Shown here: in pieces, positions 7,646 to 54,160 of the stretch
How positions within the stretch are numbered: position 1 is the stretch's first letter
Layout of the letters: the number at the start of each line of letters is the position of its first letter
DNA from: Candidatus Omnitrophota bacterium
GTDB lineage: Bacteria; Omnitrophota; Gorgyraeia; Gygaellales; Profunditerraquicolaceae
Assembly: GCA_028717885.1 (NCBI GenBank)
Contig: JAQUMX010000005.1
Coordinates: 4,838-68,837, forward strand
Direction: 5' to 3'
DNA: 64,000 nt
Made by a program: the position numbers and the translations under genes
Notes under the pieces: generated by a model
Seen by the model: only the letters and a program-made list of their open reading frames with translations
Told to the model about the DNA's origin: nothing
Database searches by the model: none

Positions 7646-10600
7646 ATGCTATCTAAGTTTTTTTTGAACCGTCCGGTTTTTGCATGGGTAATTGCCATTA
7701 TGATAATGGTTCTGGGTGGTTTGGCGGTTTTCACCCTGCCGGTTTCCCAATATCCGCCTATCGCCCCGCCGTCTATCCGCATCACAGCTCTTTATCCCGG
7801 CGCTTCCGCGGAAACCGTAGAAAACAGCATTACGCAAATCATTGAGCAGCAGATGACCGGTTTGGACAGGATGCTTTATATGTCCAGCTCCAGCGACTCT
7901 TCTGGTTCATCAAGTATTGAATTGACTTTTTCCCCGGGCACTGATCCGGATATTGCCTGGTCTAAGGTGCAAAATAAGCTTCAACTGGCCATGCCGCGGC
8001 TTCCTGAAGTAGTGCAGCGCCGTGGAGTTTCCGTACAGAAATCCACCCGTAATTATCTCCTGATAGTGGGATTAGTCTCTGAAGACGGCAGCATGACTGA
8101 TATTGATTTACGCGATTACATGCAAAGCGTCGTGCAGCCTGTTTTGGCGCGCGTGCCCGGAGTGGGCGAAGCAGAGTCGTTCGGCAGCGAATATGCCATG
8201 CGTATCTGGTTTGACCCTAGCAAGTTGGTCAGCTATGGGCTAACAGCGGACGATGTTATCAGGGCAATACAAAATTACAATGTTGAAGTTTCCGGCGGCC
8301 AGTTTGGTGACGCTCCGGCAATAAAAGGGCAGCGCCTGAACGCATCCATCATAGTGCAAAGCCTGCTAAAGACCCCGGAAGAATTTTCTGATATTCCTGT
8401 GCGCATTAATCCCGACGGATCAACGATTAGGATTAAAGATATCGGCCGCGTAGCATTGGGAAGCGACCAGATGAACATAAAGCTCTACTTTAACAAAGGG
8501 CAGCCTTCGGCAGGGCTCGCCATTCGCCAGGAGCCCGGAGCTAATTCCCTGCGTACGGTTGACGCCATCAAAGCCAAGATGGAAGAACTAAGCCATTATT
8601 TCCCGCCGGGGATGAAATTAACTTACCCTTATGATACCACGCCTTTTACCAGGGTCGCCATTAAGGAAGTATTTAAAACGCTGGTTGAGGCCATTGTTTT
8701 AGTTTTCCTGGTAATGTATTTGTTCATGGGCAATATCCGGGCAACTTTTATTCCTACAATCGCAGTGCCGGTGGTATTATTAGGGACTTTTGGGGTATTG
8801 GGAATAGCCGGGTTTTCCATTAACATGTTGACGATGTTTGCCATGGTATTGGCTATAGGCTTATTGGTAGACGACGCTATTGTCGTAGTGGAGAACGTGG
8901 AGCGTTTAATGAGCGAAGAGGGCCTTATGCCGCGGGAAGCAGCCGCTAAATCTATGGAGCAGATCACTCCCGCATTAATCGGCATCGGCCTTGTGCTTTC
9001 CGCGGTTTTCGGGCCGATGGCATTTTTTGGGGGCTCTACCGGCATTATTTACCGCCAATTTTCCGTAACCGTTATTGCCGCAATGTTACTTTCGGTGGTA
9101 GTGGCTTTAATCCTGACACCTGTTCTTTGCGCTTCGTTTCTTAAGCCGGTGCCAAAAGGGCATCAGCCAGCCGAAGGCGGAATCTGGTTTTTGCGGCCTT
9201 TTTTCCGTTGGTTTGACCGGATTTTCTTTAAGTCACGCGACTTATATGTCGGGCTGGTCAGTCATTCATTTAGCCGGAGCGCGCGGTATATCTTCTTTTA
9301 TTTTATAATCGTGGCGGCAATGTTATTTGTTTTCTTGCGCATGCCCACAGGCTACCTACCCGATGAAGATCAGGGAATCCTGGTTGTTATGGCTAATTTG
9401 CCTTCCGGAGCAACTCTTGAGCAATCTGAAGCGGTGCTGAAAAAGGTACAGCAGTATTTTACAGATCAAGAGAAAGATGCGGTTGAGTCAATCCTTACGA
9501 TCGCCGGAGCGAATCAGGCAGGCCACGGGCAAAATACGGGAATGGCTTTTATCAGGCTCAAAGACTGGGAGTTACGCAAAAAAGAAGAGCTAAAAGCGGA
9601 TGTGATAGCAAACCGCGCCATGAAGGAATTTATGTCATATAAAGAAGCGCTGGTTTACGCTTTTACTCCTCCGGCAATCGTTGAATTGGGCACTGCCAAA
9701 GGTTTTGATTTTGAGCTGCAGGATCGCGGCGGTGCAGGCCATGAAAAGCTGATGGAAGCACGCAGGCAGCTCTTGGAGATGGCCTCTAAAGACCCTCGCT
9801 TAAGCCGGGTGCGGGCAAACGGCCTGGAAGATGTGGCGCAGTATAAAATTGATTTGGATTGGGAAAAGGCCGGAAGCCTGGGGGTTCCCATTGCATCCAT
9901 CGAGGATGCGATTTCTACTACTTTTGGCTCAAGTTATGTCAATGATTTTATTAAAGACGGCAGAATTAAACATGTGGATATCCAGGCTGACGCTCTTTAC
10001 CGCATGCAGCCGGAAAATTTGAAAAACCTTTATGTACGGAATACCCAGGGAAAGATGGTGCCTTATTCTTCTTTTGCCTCCGGGCATTGGATTTTCGGCT
10101 CGCCGAAACTGGAACGCTACAATGCTTTTCCATCCGCCGAAATCCTGGGCGAAGCGGCAAAGGGCAGGAGTTCCGGCGAGGCAATGAAGGCGATGGAGGA
10201 ACTTTCAGCGAAACTGCCCCGCGAGTTCGGCCATGATTGGACAGGGCTTTCTTACCAGGAACGTCAGTCCGGCTCACAAGCTGGGCCGCTTTACGCCTTT
10301 TCTATTCTGATTATCTTTTTATGCGTGGCGGCATTGTATGAAAGCTGGAGTATCCCCATCGTGAATATGTTGATGTTGCCGCTGGGCGTTTTTGGAGCAA
10401 CGCTGGCAACGCATTTACGCGGTATGCCCAATGACGTTTATTTTCAGATCGGTTTCCTTACTACCTTAGGGTTATCCACTAAAAACGCTATTTTGATTAT
10501 TCAGTTTGCCCAGCATCGCATTGAAAACGGTGAAAAGATGATTGAGGCGACTCTGGGCGCGGTAAGAACCAGGTTCCGCCCGGTAATCATGACTTCTATG

Positions 10601-49105: not shown

Positions 49106-49966
49106 ATGAAAGTTTTGGTTTTAATAAAAAAGGCGCTTATCTTTTTATCTTTAATTTTTTTTATTTACGGTTGCGAGAAACCGGTATTTTATAGTTCTTG
49201 GGCAGGGGATAAGATCAGTATAGACGGCAGATACCAGGACTGGAATGATTTTTCTCCGGCTTATTACGATGAAAAGACAAAAACTTCTTTGTACCTGGCA
49301 AATGGCCATGATTTCCTGTATTTGTGTTTAATTACCAGGAACCGCGAAATTGAAGCGCAGGTTATGGGTAGAGGCATGGTGAGTTGGTTTGATGCCGAAG
49401 ACAAGCAAAGGCAGGTTTTCGGAGTAAGTTTTCCCGCGGGCGGTATGTTTTTAGGAGAAGAAAAAAGAGGAGAAGATGTAAATTGGCGGGACCAGCAGGA
49501 TACAGGCGGCTTAATAGACAGGGAAAAAGAAAGGCTCTTGGATAAGGATTTTAATCGGCGTTTGGAGACCGCTGAGGAGTTGGCGGATAGGTTTGAAATT
49601 ATCGAGCGCCCTGCGGATTATCAAGCAAAAGAAAAGCATCCGCGTAATCGCAGCCGTAAAGGCGAAAAAGGATTATTCCCCGAAGACCTCTTAAAGGATA
49701 AACCTCTGGAGCTGTCTTCGCAAGAAGCAAACGAGTTAGGATTTGCAGCAAAAGTCGGCAGAGAAAACGATTATTTTGTTTATGAACTGAAAGTCCCGCT
49801 TTCTAAAACGCCTCAATACCCGCATGCTATAGGCGTAAAACCAGGCAGGCCAATCGCTATCGGCTTAACAATAGAAGGCAGGGGCCCAAGCGCAAAACAG
49901 GGCATGTTCGAAACCAGCGATATTTTCCAATTCTGGATGACAGTTATACTCTCGCCCCAAGCTTAA
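49106..49966 (+). CDS. hypothetical lipoprotein
   Basis: Lipobox FIYGC. 286 aa with an acidic/basic low-complexity centre. No motif recognised. Confidence 0.5.
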   Translation: MKVLVLIKKALIFLSLIFFIYGCEKPVFYSSWAGDKISIDGRYQDWNDFSPAYYDEKTKTSLYLANGHDFLYLCLITRNREIEAQVMGRGMVSWFDAEDKQRQVFGVSFPAGGMFLGEEKRGEDVNWRDQQDTGGLIDREKERLLDKDFNRRLETAEELADRFEIIERPADYQAKEKHPRNRSRKGEKGLFPEDLLKDKPLELSSQEANELGFAAKVGRENDYFVYELKVPLSKTPQYPHAIGVKPGRPIAIGLTIEGRGPSAKQGMFETSDIFQFWMTVILSPQA

Positions 49967-50440: not shown

Positions 50441-50469
50441 GGAACTTTTTTCGCATTTTGGTTGTCTAA
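50441..50469 (+). promoter_or_regulatory. ECF (sigmaE-type) promoter
   Basis: GGAACTT (50441-50447), 17-nt spacer, TCTAA (50465-50469). Lies 30 nt upstream of the anti-sigma gene ATG. Confidence 0.55.
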
Positions 50470-50498
50470 GTTGGTAGAAAGGCAAAAAGAGGGCGAAG

Positions 50499-50948
50499 AT
50501 GGATAAATGTAAAGAGATTAGAAGCGTGATCCTTACGGATTATATTGACGGGCAGCTGGAGGCCCCGGAAAAGGAACGCATTAATACACATTTAAGGCAG
50601 TGCGCTGTATGCCGGGGATTTCTGGAAGAGGCACAAAAAGGCCTGGTTACGCCCTTCCAAGGGCAAAACAGGCAAGCAGTGCCGCAAACTCTTTGGCCGG
50701 CGATCGTGGAAAAGATCTGCCAAGAGCAGGAGCATCCTGTGCGGGTTTTTATTCCCAGGTTAGCTCCGGTAGCGGTAAGCTTTCTTCTTGCGGTATTGAT
50801 TACTTCCGTGATTTTCTTTAACCAATATATGGCCGGCCTTAGGGAGGAAGAGCAATTAAACTATGTATCTTCGGCATTCGGAGTTTCGCAAGCGCAAACG
50901 GAAACAACAAGTGATTTTGGGACACTGATCGAGGAATATTTCCTCTAA
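50499..50948 (+). CDS. zf-HC2 anti-sigma factor (single-pass membrane)
   Basis: HLRQCAVC (Hx3Cx2C) at the N-terminus and one TM segment (LAPVAVSFLLAVLITSVIFF). Confidence 0.75.
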   Translation: MDKCKEIRSVILTDYIDGQLEAPEKERINTHLRQCAVCRGFLEEAQKGLVTPFQGQNRQAVPQTLWPAIVEKICQEQEHPVRVFIPRLAPVAVSFLLAVLITSVIFFNQYMAGLREEEQLNYVSSAFGVSQAQTETTSDFGTLIEEYFL

Positions 50949-50968
50949 AGAAAAAGGAGGGGGTAGAG

Positions 50969-51499
50969 ATGAATAAGCTGATACTTAAAAACAAGTTACT
51001 GGTAATCTTGTTGTTGCTTCCTGCGTTTACAGTTTTGTATTCGCAAGACGCATTTGCCTGGGGCGGGCACGGCGGCCGTGGGCATTATTCTTATCAAGGC
51101 GGCCGTTGGCATGACACAAACTGGTTTTGGGGGCTTTTCGGAGCAGGGCTGGCAATTGGCGCCATAGTTTCGACTCTCCCGCCGCGTTATGAAACAGTAT
51201 ATGTGCGGGGGGTGCCTTATTATTATGACGACGGGGTTTACTTCAGGCAGCATTCGGGAGGTTATATTGTAGTTCCGGCTCCGGCAACCACTGCTACTGT
51301 AGTGACTGTGCCTAATACTGTTGCAATTGTTCCTACGGTTGTGCCGGGGGCCGCAGTAGTAATCAATGTCCCCAATTCTCGCGGAGGATATACGCAGGTT
51401 ACTCTTACCAGGCAAGGCAATGGTTATGTCGGGCCACAAGGCGAATATTATGAAGGCAACCCTACTGTTGATCAGTTAAGGGCCCTATATGGGAAATAA
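50969..51499 (+). CDS. secreted His/Gly-rich protein with YYYDDGVYF motif, unknown function
   Basis: Signal peptide, then WGGHGGRGHYSYQGGRWHD, one hydrophobic segment, and VPYYYDDGVYFRQHSGGYIVVPAP. Confidence 0.5.
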   Translation: MNKLILKNKLLVILLLLPAFTVLYSQDAFAWGGHGGRGHYSYQGGRWHDTNWFWGLFGAGLAIGAIVSTLPPRYETVYVRGVPYYYDDGVYFRQHSGGYIVVPAPATTATVVTVPNTVAIVPTVVPGAAVVINVPNSRGGYTQVTLTRQGNGYVGPQGEYYEGNPTVDQLRALYGK

Positions 51500-51514
51500 C
51501 GAAAGGAGGAAATT

Positions 51515-51811
51515 ATGATGGTACATGGCGCAATTTTCTCGTTAGTACACGCAGTGGTATTGTTGGCGGTGAGCTACTTTATCCTGTTGACTGCGCGAAA
51601 ATCCGATTCACAGAACCTTAAAGTGTTCGGATATTGTATTGCGGTCCTGCTCTGGGTAGGCGCAGCATTAATACTGGGAAAAGGGATCTCCGGCAATAAC
51701 CGGGAATTCCATAAGATGCAGTTCATGGGGGAAAAAATGGAGCGTAAAATGAATTGCTCTGGCCCGGGGGCGATGCAGCAGGCTAATCCGCAATTACCGC
51801 AAGGCAGGTAA
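51515..51811 (+). CDS. small membrane protein
   Basis: 98 aa with two TM segments. AAAGGAGG SD. Confidence 0.5.
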   Translation: MMVHGAIFSLVHAVVLLAVSYFILLTARKSDSQNLKVFGYCIAVLLWVGAALILGKGISGNNREFHKMQFMGEKMERKMNCSGPGAMQQANPQLPQGR

Positions 51812-51831
51812 GTTTTGCTCATTTTCCAGAG

Positions 51832-52389
51832 GTGGCAATGCAGGATATAGCTAAAGAAATTGTGATCAAGGCGCAAGCCGGCGATACCGGTAGTTTCAGA
51901 AGCATTTATGAAGAAACTGCCGGCTTCGTTTATAATGTGGCTTTAAGAATAGTCAAGCGCAGCCAGGATGCCGAAGAAGTGGCTCAAGAGGTTTTTTTAA
52001 ATATTTACCGTAATTTAAAAAGTTTTCATTTTCAATCCTCTTTTAAAACCTGGGCCTATAGGATCGCGGTGAATGCCGCGCTTAATCACTTAAAAAAAAT
52101 GAAGAGAGAAGAAAGCAGGAGGGGCGAATTTAATGAGGAACTGAATTATAATCCGGTTTTTTCCGCGGATAAAGGCCTTTTAAGCGATAAACAAGAGCAA
52201 GAGGCGCAGGTAAATTCTCTATTGGATGCGCTTAACCCCGAACAAAGGGCGGTAGTTGTTTTACGTAATTTGGAAGGCTTAAGTTACCAGGAAATTGCGG
52301 ACACATTAGAGATCAATATTAATACGGTGCGGTCCAGGTTAAAAAGGGCGCGAGAGAGGTTGATCGCGCTAAAAGGAGGGCAAAGATGA
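51832..52389 (+). CDS. ECF-subfamily RNA polymerase sigma factor
   Basis: Region 2 DAEEVAQEVFLNIYRNL...FKTWAYRIAVNAALNH. Region 4 LSYQEIADTLEININTVRSRLKRARERL. Start is either GTG at 51832 or ATG at 51838. Confidence 0.9.
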   Translation: MAMQDIAKEIVIKAQAGDTGSFRSIYEETAGFVYNVALRIVKRSQDAEEVAQEVFLNIYRNLKSFHFQSSFKTWAYRIAVNAALNHLKKMKREESRRGEFNEELNYNPVFSADKGLLSDKQEQEAQVNSLLDALNPEQRAVVVLRNLEGLSYQEIADTLEININTVRSRLKRARERLIALKGGQR

Positions 52390-52883
52390 TTACTGAGCGG
52401 GAGAAAATATTCGTAGCGGTCACCGTTGTTTTATTGGCGGTATTGGCGTATTTCTTTTTTGCATCTTCCCAGGCTCCGTATTCCCGGCAGGAAAAAGGCT
52501 TCGGCAGTTTTGGGCGGATGCATCCCGGAGGAGAGCGTTTTTTTAAAAGCCTCGGCCTTACCAGCGAACAGCAAATGATGCTGGAGCAAAACCGGAATAA
52601 ACACCGTGAAATAAGCGGAATACTTTTTGCCCAGACGAACGAAAAAAGGGAAGCCATTCGCCAGGAATTGCAAAAAGAGCAGCTAAATAAGGGAAAAATC
52701 CTTCAATTAGCGACGGAGCTAAAGGCAATACAGGCGCAAATTGTCGATGAAAAAATCTCCGGAATGCTGGAAGTAAGAAAGATAGTTACTCCTGCGCAGT
52801 TTAATCAATTCATCTCCCAGGCACAGGCAGGGCCGGGCCGTTTTTTTAAAGGCCGCCAGGACCGGGAAAAAGATCTATTTTAA
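52386..52883 (+). CDS. membrane-anchored Spy/CpxP/ZraP-family (LTxxQ) periplasmic stress protein
   Basis: ATGA overlap with the sigma gene. N-terminal TM segment. LGLTSEQQMMLEQ and VTPAQFNQF are LTxxQ-type motifs. Confidence 0.65.
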   Translation: MITEREKIFVAVTVVLLAVLAYFFFASSQAPYSRQEKGFGSFGRMHPGGERFFKSLGLTSEQQMMLEQNRNKHREISGILFAQTNEKREAIRQELQKEQLNKGKILQLATELKAIQAQIVDEKISGMLEVRKIVTPAQFNQFISQAQAGPGRFFKGRQDREKDLF

Positions 52884-53002
52884 TCGGCCTGTCCTAGTAG
52901 AAAAAAGTCAGAAAAAAGCAGAGCCCCCCAGTTTACTTACCTGATATTTAAGAGATAATCCCCTTATGAAACAATTATTAACTGTTAACAAAGGAGGGAA
53001 AG

Positions 53003-53113
53003 ATGTGTGACGTATGCGGATGTACCCCGTGTAAATGCGGGCAACCGATCGAAAAAGGCGTTTGTAAAGGTTGCGGCAAAAAAGCCAAAGATTGTACCTG
53101 TAAGAAAAAATAG
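53003..53113 (+). CDS. 36-aa Cys-rich, Lys-rich mini-protein (metallothionein-like; not in ORF track)
   Basis: AAAGGAGGG SD ends 4 nt before the ATG. MCDVCGCTPCKCGQPIEKGVCKGCGKKAKDCTCKKK has 9 Cys in 36 residues arranged as CxxCxC, CxC, CxxC, CxC. Confidence 0.6.
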   Translation: MCDVCGCTPCKCGQPIEKGVCKGCGKKAKDCTCKKK

Positions 53114-53227
53114 GTTTAACCTTTCCTGTTGTTAGGCGCAATTCACCTATTTACAGGGTATGATATTACGGTATATAATAATACTTCCTCTGTTATAGGT
53201 AAATAATGCTTTCCAACGGGAGAAAAG

Positions 53228-54160
53228 GTGTTAGGTGACAGGATCCGGGTTTTAGATTTAGACGGCAGTATTTTGGAGCAGAAGAAGCTCTTGGGGCAGT
53301 ATAAATGCGATATCGTTGCCTTAAGGGAATTTGGTCCGCAGGCGCGCCATTTTACTTCCCGGCAAACCCGGGATCTTTTAGCGGATAGGTTGTTCGATAC
53401 GCCAAAGGAATCCATAACTTTCCTGGGTTCCGGGGATTTTCATCATATCAGCGAAATTCTCATCAGCCGTTTCGAAGAGCCTCTTACCGTGATTATGTTC
53501 GATCATCATCCTGACTGGGACAGCCGTCCTCCGCGCTACGGCTGCGGTTCATGGGTGACAGAAGTCCTTAAGTCCAGGCCCAATGTTAAAAAATTTATCC
53601 TTCTGGGCGTTTCTTCCGAAGATATCTCAAGTTTTAATATTAATGGCGCTTACCTGGAAGCGCTCAAAGATAACCGCCTGGAGATTTATCCCTATACGCA
53701 TAAGCCATCCAAAACTTTCGGCAAGGATGTCCCGGATAACGCTTCGCTGAAAATAGAGAAGAATTTTTTGTTTAATACTATCTTTTGGCAGGAGCTTAAA
53801 GGAAAAAATTTGGAAAATTTTTTCCGTTCGCTTCTCAAGCGTATTCCCACAAAAGACGTCTACGTTTCCCTGGACAAAGACTGTTTAACCAATGATTATG
53901 CATTGACTAACTGGGAAGAGGGCAATTTTTCTCTGGAAGAAGTCTTGTCTCTTTTAGGCCTTATTAAGGATAACTTTAATATTGCGGGTTTTGATATTAC
54001 CGGGGAATATTCCCCGATTTTAGTAAAGGGGATATTGAAAAGAATTGCCTCTTACTTTGACCATCCGAAGAAAATTAAAGCATTGAGCCTGCCGGGATCC
54101 CAGATTAGAAAAGTCAATGAAGAAACGAACCTGAAGATCATGAAAACAATTAACGCATGA
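53228..54160 (+). CDS. divergent arginase/ureohydrolase-fold protein
   Basis: GSGDFHHIS, MFDHHPDW, VSLDKDCLTNDY and FDITGEYSP occur in the order and spacing of the arginase-family metal-ligand motifs (GGDHS, DAHxD, SxDxDxxDP, DxxExxP). GTG start. Confidence 0.45.
   Translation: MLGDRIRVLDLDGSILEQKKLLGQYKCDIVALREFGPQARHFTSRQTRDLLADRLFDTPKESITFLGSGDFHHISEILISRFEEPLTVIMFDHHPDWDSRPPRYGCGSWVTEVLKSRPNVKKFILLGVSSEDISSFNINGAYLEALKDNRLEIYPYTHKPSKTFGKDVPDNASLKIEKNFLFNTIFWQELKGKNLENFFRSLLKRIPTKDVYVSLDKDCLTNDYALTNWEEGNFSLEEVLSLLGLIKDNFNIAGFDITGEYSPILVKGILKRIASYFDHPKKIKALSLPGSQIRKVNEETNLKIMKTINA

Follow-up and report, generated by a model that had tools for sequence, protein, structure and literature searches.

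Introduction

To our knowledge, very few bacterial metallothionein-like families have been described, and none from archaea or from the large uncultured anaerobic phyla. Beyond the metallothioneins, two types of Cys-rich metal site are close enough to the locus reported here to serve as references. One is the N terminus of the hydrogenase nickel chaperone HypB, which in E. coli begins MCTTCGC, the CTTCGC at residues 2-7 being the conserved CxxCGC motif (PMC12284835). Its affinity for Ni(II) is picomolar and the site square-planar, Cys2, Cys5 and Cys7 contributing their thiolates and the chain its N-terminal amine as ligands (PMC12284835). The other is the group of C(P)XCG zinc-finger micro-proteins known from Haloferax volcanii and further archaea, which two reports describe as shorter than 70 aa, carrying a minimum of two motifs of the C(P)XCG type, stand-alone and often unannotated (PMC11241148, PMC6562870).

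We analysed a stretch of 64,000 nucleotides from a Candidatus Omnitrophota bacterium, referred to below as the window, and within it a 36-codon open reading frame (the mini-ORF). Its product, the mini-protein, belongs to a nine-Cys family that is widespread in anaerobic bacteria and archaea, previously undescribed, and outside the known metallothionein families.

Results

The mini-gene and its expression signals

The mini-ORF runs on the forward strand from an ATG at 53003 to a TAG ending at 53113, and its translation is MCDVCGCTPCKCGQPIEKGVCKGCGKKAKDCTCKKK. Nine of the 36 residues (25%) are Cys, at positions 2, 5, 7, 10, 12, 21, 24, 31 and 33, and another nine are Lys; Phe, Trp, Tyr and His are absent. 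The elements that we place at the locus are the following.

53003-53113, forward strand: coding sequence of the mini-protein with its nine Cys, supported by the sequence, by homologues, by purifying selection and by an ATG start in 85 of 85 distinct family genes
52990-52998, forward strand: Shine-Dalgarno site AAAGGAGGG, 4 nt 5' of the ATG; SD-like motifs stand before 65 of the 85 family genes
52932-52959, forward strand: candidate sigma-70-like promoter TTTACT-16 nt-GATAAT, a consensus match only (9/12)
52978-52988, no strand assigned: palindrome TTAAC-T-GTTAA, 3' of the candidate -10 element and 5' of the Shine-Dalgarno site

The candidate promoter would imply a leader of about 37 nt. The palindrome could be an operator or a chance match, and it is not conserved in the relatives examined. 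A simple scan finds no intrinsic terminator 3' of the window's mini-ORF, and Rfam returns nothing relevant around it. On the opposite strand a 77-aa ORF with a TTG start (52908-53141) overlaps the mini-gene. A preliminary description of the locus had listed a 36-aa frame with a Lys-rich tail, nine Cys at 25% and a Shine-Dalgarno site 4 nt from the start; all of these sequence details are correct.

In Cys content the mini-ORF ranks first among the window's 619 ORFs of 25 aa or more, the runner-up reaching 16%. Since about 0.12 such Cys-rich 36-codon stretches are expected by chance per 64 kb, Cys composition by itself is borderline evidence, and the question whether the mini-ORF is a gene is decided by conservation in homologue searches rather than by composition. 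The exact mini-protein is missing from a collection of 15 billion proteins while its neighbour MDD4899050.1, of a Candidatus Omnitrophota MAG, is present, so that the mini-gene is unannotated in its own genome.

A family spread across anaerobic bacteria and archaea

A phmmer search of 1.84 billion cluster representatives returned 15 clusters at E <1e-3, the best at E 2.9e-7 with 78% identity. A profile search of 5.8 billion proteins collected 129 family proteins, every one of them named "hypothetical" or left unnamed and none carrying a Pfam domain; the first sequence of the family profile is 44 aa long. The mini-protein padded to 40 aa found no match in a word-indexed search. Scanning GTDB with one genome per species confirmed 268 loci that have the same nine-Cys pattern and the same start. 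Homologues from the phmmer and profile searches are 33-107 aa long, contain no further domain and are never fused. Scanning the ORF and 125 members with Pfam and NCBIfam assigned no family and gave solely sub-threshold matches, those to Pfam among the 125 members being all to zinc-finger, zinc-ribbon or eukaryotic metallothionein families.

The taxonomic range can be read from the 80 loci that were fetched of the 268 confirmed. Bacterial carriers in this set belong to Omnitrophota, Planctomycetota, Nitrospirota, Desulfobacterota, Clostridia, Patescibacteria, Aerophobetes, Dehalococcoidales and Acidobacteriota, and archaeal carriers to Bathyarchaeia and Methanoperedens. Nearly all are anaerobes, and the complete genome of the omnitrophotan Ca. 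Velamenicoccus archaeovorus is among them. When ten family members were checked, six were missing from protein databases; gene callers often skip such genes, which would have kept the family largely invisible so far. Literature searches by motif and by topic found no paper describing it.

The mini-ORF encodes a conserved protein

The nine Cys are retained almost without exception in 219 unique sequences, and Met stands immediately before Cys2 in all but about four of these, even where gene callers chose an upstream start. One member, P0005, has lost C2 and C10 together. Terminator-like hairpins lie 3' of 23 of 84 family genes, as against 10 of 170 random control positions. Both TGC and TGT are used at each of the nine Cys positions, and pairwise comparisons within the window's subfamily give pN 0.17 against pS 0.86 in the sense frame. 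Purifying selection on this frame is strong, and it is near certain that the mini-ORF is a genuine gene. On this point the preliminary description is borne out: it had proposed a real coding gene missed by annotation and had suggested looking for its Cys pattern in relatives, where the pattern indeed recurs, from the phmmer clusters through the 129 proteins to the 268 loci. Of the two outcomes that it had named as speaking against the proposal, a randomly substituted frame and an expressed antisense product, the first is contradicted by the pN and pS values of the sense frame.

The second turns on the longer antisense ORF, which is present as it had stated and is not under protein-level selection: pS in that frame (0.14) is lower than pN (0.32), and many relatives carry stops in it. 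We reject the 77-aa ORF as the true gene on these grounds, and attribute the openness of its frame to the TGY codons opposite, of which it is a by-product. More generally, a locus without a protein product of its own, whether a Cys-sensing leader peptide, a chance ORF or the shadow of an antisense gene, is something we consider almost certainly wrong here. The mini-ORF is intergenic, lies upstream of another gene and is spanned by that open antisense frame, all of which such a reading could use; against this, nearly every lineage has a different downstream gene, often on the other strand, relatives have terminators of their own, and non-Cys residues are conserved together with the spacing. A Cys-sensing leader peptide in particular is rejected because the downstream genes vary and relatives terminate the transcript themselves.

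Architecture of the family

The family follows the consensus M-C-x-x-C-G-C-x-P-C-x(1-2)-C-G-x-x-I-x-x-G-V-C-x-G-C-G-x(5)-C-x-C plus a variable tail. Its parts are found in the window at these positions.

53003-53023, forward strand: N-terminal M-C-D-V-C-G-C, codons 1-7, in which M1, C2, C5, G6 and C7 are each at least 90% conserved
53030-53077, forward strand: zinc-ribbon-like unit C-K-C-G-QPIEKGV-C-K-G-C-G, codons 10-25, placed by comparing the family profile with the PDB and by an AlphaFold2 model
53093-53101, forward strand: C-terminal C-T-C pair, codons 31-33, with C31 and C33 at least 90% conserved
53102-53110, forward strand: Lys-Lys-Lys tail, in the variable part of the family

The MCDVCGC of the window places Cys2, Cys5, Gly6 and Cys7 directly after the initiator Met, as in HypB, a motif that the preliminary description had overlooked. 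The strict N-terminal placement of CxxCGC in the family fits a role for the free amine. Three members carry an N-terminal extension, and in these His (two members) or Tyr (one) takes the place of the Met; these numbers are tiny. P0124 is without the N-terminal module and keeps the six-Cys module, a single member that suggests a modular build of the family.

The zinc-ribbon-like unit would consist of two Cys knuckles around a predicted short hairpin. Its first knuckle is CxxCG in two thirds of the family and CxCG in the window, the spacer between Cys4 and Cys5 being two residues long in 147 members and one residue long in 71, the window's protein included. Apart from the Cys, residues M1, G6, P9, G13, I16, V20 and G23 are unusually conserved, and conservation this high argues for one defined fold rather than a plastic metallothionein. 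The AlphaFold2 model of the mini-protein is compact, with a hairpin at residues 16-21 and a mean pLDDT of 81. Comparison of the family profile with the PDB gave weak matches (E 0.016 or worse) to Cys4 zinc-ribbon or RING segments, in RecR, L37e, L32, Nop10, the NOT4 RING domain and a designed mini-rubredoxin, all aligned to the PCxxCG...CxxCG part of the family. The tail may be absent (several homologues terminate right after the C-terminal CxC), Lys-rich, or an acidic stretch of Glu/Asp about 40 residues long at most, which ends in an aromatic residue in many Planctomycetota.

These features bring in the main rival to a metal-holding function, namely that the mini-protein is a structural zinc-finger micro-protein in which one or two inert Zn hold the fold while the protein acts through a specific partner, be it a protein, RNA, DNA or the ribosome. 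The C(P)XCG micro-proteins of Haloferax volcanii, an established class, set a precedent for such a mode (PMC11241148, PMC6562870). Two or three CxxCG knuckles are present, the natural proteins among the PDB similarities are limited to the zinc-ribbon modules of RecR, L37e, L32 and Nop10 and the NOT4 RING, residues other than Cys change very little between phyla and between domains, the tail is rich in Lys in many members, and the genes lie in housekeeping neighbourhoods and in small Patescibacteria genomes. On the other hand, nine conserved Cys are more than one or two Cys4 sites require, a supposed knuckle tolerates a one-residue indel, tails that range from poly-Lys to a 40-residue poly-Glu/Asp run argue against one conserved charged partner, and the roughly 88 loci described below yield no conserved neighbouring partner gene. 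We regard a purely structural zinc as a possible but tentative explanation. The conservation of non-Cys residues between bacteria and archaea, and the presence of the gene in reduced Patescibacteria genomes, fit it at least as well as they fit a metal buffer.

Genomic context

In the window, the mini-gene is preceded by a five-gene operon (50441-52883) made up as follows.

50441-50469, forward strand: ECF-type promoter GGAAC-N17-TGTCTAA, given as context only, matching the GGAAT-N17-CGTCTAA before the sigma gene in four relatives (L004, L038, L039 and L055)
50499-50948, forward strand: zf-HC2 anti-sigma gene, from Pfam/NCBIfam
50969-51499, forward strand: DUF6515 gene, from Pfam/NCBIfam
51515-51811, forward strand: gene for a small membrane protein
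51832-52389, forward strand: ECF sigma gene, from Pfam/NCBIfam
52386-52883, forward strand: gene for a periplasmic Metal_resist (PF13801)/LTxxQ protein, from Pfam/NCBIfam

From the end of the LTxxQ/Metal_resist gene at 52883 to the mini-ORF there is a gap of 119 nt. The preliminary description had put this distance at about 120 nt, which agrees, and had taken the position as an argument for a role in metal handling, which finds little echo in the wider family: among about 88 de-replicated loci only 5, the window counted, have an ECF sigma gene next to the mini-gene, and all five are apparently of Omnitrophota type. ECF-dependent transcription of the mini-ORF was considered and finds no support, as GGAAY-N17-YGTCTAA is absent upstream and the sigma-70-like promoter candidate stands there instead. 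Relatives (L004, L038, L039, L043 and L055) have a TGGTATAAT promoter at a similar distance. Velamenicoccus-like loci have the mini-gene upstream of the sigma gene, equipped with a TGGTATAAT promoter and an intrinsic terminator of its own; the sigma factors of this arrangement and of the window's are 33% identical. The adjacency of mini-gene and sigma gene has thus survived rearrangement within Omnitrophota, and, judged from the promoters and terminators, the two genes are probably transcribed separately. A functional link between the mini-gene and the ECF/LTxxQ cluster is weak.

To survey the surroundings of the family, 730 neighbouring ORFs from the approximately 88 de-replicated loci were clustered, and 285 of them were scanned against Pfam. 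No neighbour family is conserved across these loci; lineage synteny accounts for the largest cluster, which spans 8 of them. Most neighbours are housekeeping genes, for aminotransferases, SAICAR synthetase, glutamine synthetase and tRNA synthetases. No metal regulator, hyp gene or nickel transporter recurs near family genes in the approximately 88 loci, and hyp, cobW and hydrogenase families are missing among the listed most frequent families of the 285 neighbours.

Two themes do recur, if softly, in unrelated lineages and in unrelated arrangements. The first is metal export: heavy-metal P-type (P1B-type) ATPases lie within 3.3 kb in four loci (L021, L028, L035 and L083), cation-diffusion facilitators within 3.4 kb in three (L031, L065 and L082), and a gene of the MntP family, a putative manganese efflux pump, 360 nt away in L026. 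The second is anaerobic oxidative-stress defence. Genes for desulfoferrodoxin/neelaredoxin (superoxide reductase) are found 17 nt away on the same strand in L030, 709 nt away in L028, and about 2.7 kb away in L025 and L031; rubrerythrin is matched by two members among the immediate neighbours and by three among the second-tier neighbours; and ferritin, AhpC and hemerythrin genes lie nearby in L007. By an estimate from assumed gene frequencies, with no control set, both themes are several-fold above expectation, which is suggestive only.

The oxidative-stress neighbours could mean that the mini-protein is itself a redox-active iron or thiol protein of that defence, either a zinc-thiolate redox switch or a mini rubredoxin-like protein that passes electrons to superoxide reductase or rubrerythrin. 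The carriers are almost all anaerobes, the CxxCG...CxxCG arrangement is the rubredoxin knuckle pattern, and a designed mini-rubredoxin is among the weak PDB matches. We nevertheless hold this to be unlikely, given that the association is seen in only about a tenth of the loci, that five further conserved Cys are left over, and that the rubredoxin-typical aromatic core is missing along with any Pfam rubredoxin match.

Neither does the context favour a precursor of a Cys-rich ribosomally made and modified peptide, the alternative raised in the preliminary description, which had itself noted that no maturation genes are adjacent. There are indeed none nearby, and the same holds more widely: no maturase, protease or exporter recurs in the roughly 88 loci, and Radical_SAM is found in 2 of 150 second-tier neighbours, with one radical SAM gene about 4 kb away in L015/L016. 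The mini-protein is short and Cys-rich, as such a precursor would be, yet it is conserved from residue 1 over its whole length with no division into leader and core, and its gene is single-copy and stand-alone, often with its own terminator. We therefore think a modified-peptide precursor very improbable; named Cys-rich classes such as SCIFF and ranthipeptides were set aside for want of the adjacent maturase and of the leader and core that define them.

Discussion

We find it very likely that members of the nine-Cys family bind metal ions, since they combine nine invariant Cys in knuckle-type motifs with a Lys-rich composition and no hydrophobic core. Like metal binding itself, the grouping of the Cys into sites, the number of ions held, which metal it is and what the protein does in the cell are inferred. 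Among the explanations considered, we give about even chances to the mini-protein being a free-standing cytoplasmic metal-thiolate protein that holds or buffers thiophilic divalent metals of the Ni, Zn and Co type, metallothionein-like in function.

Such a protein might work as follows. The mini-gene would be expressed independently, and its 36-residue product would fold around thiolate-bound metal ions. Initiator Met is removed before a small residue such as Cys; with Cys as its second residue, the mini-protein would lose its Met, and the free N-terminal amine could then form a HypB-type CxxCGC site of high affinity with Cys2, Cys5 and Cys7. The other six Cys could make one or two tetrathiolate sites that clamp the chain into a compact knot, C10/C12 and C21/C24 facing each other across the short hairpin and C31/C33 joining them. 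This assignment is uncertain because the first ribbon knuckle of the window's subfamily is CxC and not CxxC. The many Lys would offset the negative charge of the thiolate cluster, and the whole might act as a buffer, a store or a hand-over point for thiophilic divalent metals.

The metal-holding explanation draws some support from context, the mini-gene lying beside the cluster of ECF sigma, anti-sigma and Metal_resist genes both in the window and in distant Omnitrophota. That context is soft, and it counts against the explanation that housekeeping genes surround the family gene in most of the approximately 88 loci. So does the promoter in Velamenicoccus-like genomes, which is strong and constitutive-looking rather than metal-regulated.

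A narrower version would make the family a free-standing HypB-type nickel site joined to a thiolate clamp, and thus a class of nickel-holding (or nickel/cobalt-holding) micro-proteins that has spread horizontally. We consider this doubtful as a specific claim. Were it true, the carriers would be anaerobes of both domains that rely on Ni enzymes, for example hydrogenases, CO dehydrogenase and methyl-CoM reductase. The HypB N-terminal peptide can bind other metals too, for example Zn(II).

Whatever its metal, the family is a compact and highly conserved nine-Cys protein, found in at least 268 species-level genomes across both domains and often left unannotated, which combines a motif that binds Ni(II) in HypB with a zinc-ribbon-like clamp. 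If metal holding is its function, it would supply a missing piece of metal homeostasis in Omnitrophota, Planctomycetota, Nitrospirota, Patescibacteria and Bathyarchaeia, and a natural scaffold of 33 residues for metal-binding studies. With its 36 residues the mini-protein is within reach of peptide synthesis, which opens the hypothesis to a direct test with no need to culture the organisms.

Comparison with known systems

In composition the mini-protein is metallothionein-like, as the preliminary description had proposed: it has 36 aa, 25% Cys arranged in CxC and CxxC motifs, and no aromatic residue or His. The likeness does not extend to membership of a known metallothionein family, which Pfam, NCBIfam and hhalign comparisons with SmtA and MymT all fail to support. 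The mini-ORF matches nothing in Pfam, PF02069 included, at E up to 10, and PF02069 is not among the 25 families most frequently matched by the 125 members at E up to 1.

BmtA/SmtA (Metallothio_Pro) is similar in being small, with nine Cys and a zinc-finger-like element, and in being a presumed cytoplasmic metal buffer. Both also contain a local C-x-C-x-P-C-x-C string, KCACEPCLC in SmtA and VCGCTPCKC in the mini-protein. They differ in length (about 56 aa against 36 aa) and in ligands, SmtA using His; the window's protein has no His and the family no conserved His, so that a site of the Zn4Cys9His2 type lacks its His ligands here. No SmtB/ArsR regulator was seen near the mini-gene. Homology to SmtA was rejected: hhalign, with a hand-typed SmtA sequence, gives a probability of 4.5% over 11 residues, and SmtA (1JJD) is not among the best 60 of the 65 PDB matches of the family profile at E up to 10.

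MymT, the Cu(I) metallothionein of mycobacteria, is likewise a small bacterial Cys-rich protein with CxC motifs, and differs by its His-containing motifs and its restriction to mycobacteria; hhalign shows no similarity to a hand-typed MymT sequence, and homology was rejected here as well. Rubredoxin was discarded for lack of a Pfam rubredoxin match and of any aromatic residue in the mini-protein. To judge from these comparisons, the mini-protein is a putative Cys-rich metal-binding micro-protein that falls outside BmtA/SmtA, MymT and rubredoxin.

The beta-domain of mammalian metallothionein (Zn3Cys9) resembles it in having nine Cys within about 30 residues, a Lys-rich composition and no aromatic residues, and 12 of the 125 members scanned have sub-threshold matches to Pfam Metallothio_Euk. 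This likeness is compositional only, as the nine-Cys family has a putative conserved hairpin, a Gly/Pro scaffold and CxxCG knuckles typical of zinc ribbons.

With C2-DV-C5-G6 and C21-KG-C24-G25, the mini-protein carries the two motifs that define the C(P)XCG micro-proteins, an operational class and not a homologous family. C(P)XCG micro-proteins usually have four Cys and bind one Zn or none, whereas in the nine-Cys family all nine Cys are invariant, with CxxCGC on the N-terminal side and CxC on the C-terminal side.

With HypB, finally, the family shares M-C-x-x-C-G-C in the same form and at the same position. In HypB a disordered extension of a GTPase domain begins with this motif, and the gene has hyp genes around it; the mini-protein is free-standing, with 36 residues, six more Cys and no GTPase domain.

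The ECF cluster and its promoter

The following elements of the ECF cluster in the window have counterparts in distant Omnitrophota.
49106-49966, gene for a protein of the 286-299-aa type
50441-50469, ECF-type promoter (GGAAC-N17-TGTCTAA), upstream of the anti-sigma gene
50969-51499, DUF6515 gene

In the Velamenicoccus-like Omnitrophota (loci L004, L038, L039 and L055) the ECF sigma gene is preceded by GGAAT-N17-CGTCTAA, a close match to the promoter in the window. This near-match between promoters suggests that the ECF system is autoregulated and that it is conserved across distant Omnitrophota. In distant Omnitrophota, as in the window, the ECF sigma and anti-sigma genes are accompanied by two further genes (8254-9721 in locus L043), one for the DUF6515 protein and one for the 286-299-aa protein, which has no Pfam match. 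The gene set of the ECF cluster is therefore conserved, though uncharacterised.

Transcription around the mini-ORF

Around the mini-ORF, which encodes the 36-aa nine-Cys protein, we identified the following features.
52978-52988, palindrome TTAAC-T-GTTAA, downstream of the mini-ORF's candidate -10 element and upstream of its Shine-Dalgarno site
53111-53113, TAG stop codon of the mini-ORF
53150-53179, near-consensus sigma-70 promoter TTTACA-18-TATAAT (11 of 12 matches), before the arginase-family gene
53228-54160, arginase-family gene
53422-53468 (-), Rfam match, below threshold, to the archaeal C/D-box sRNA sR39

The palindrome could be an operator; it was not found in the Velamenicoccus-like relatives. 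The near-consensus sigma-70 promoter implies that the arginase-family gene is transcribed separately from the mini-ORF. The sR39 match inside the arginase-family gene is most likely due to chance: it reaches 23.8 bits, where the gathering score is 50 (E 0.0015).

Diversity of the mini-protein family

In one subfamily, apparently mostly from Planctomycetota, the nine-Cys core is followed at its C-terminus by a poly-Glu/Asp tail of 25-40 residues (P0006, P0032, P0033, P0036, P0038, P0049, P0055, P0064, P0067, P0071, P0097, P0120 and others; example loci L010-L012, e.g. L010 5001-5204). These tails nearly always end with an aromatic residue and 0-1 further residues (...DYS, ...DYN, ...DW, ...EDY), and look like a separate module for interaction or cation binding.

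In several genomes the mini-gene is present twice, as diverged copies at different loci (L065 and L084, L075 and L085, L058 and L070, as well as L026 and L029, which lie on one Bathyarchaeota chromosome, CP070649.1). The mini-protein of L038, a MAG contig labelled Planctomycetia, is identical to that of L039 (Ca. Velamenicoccus archaeovorus, Omnitrophota) and the gene order is the same; the Planctomycetia label may reflect a binning or classification error.

The stop codon usage of the family is also unusual: among 85 distinct family genes (loci L001-L096 and the window), 26 end with TAA, 14 with TGA and 45, including the gene in the window, with TAG. This share is unusually high, since TAG is normally the least common of the three stop codons.
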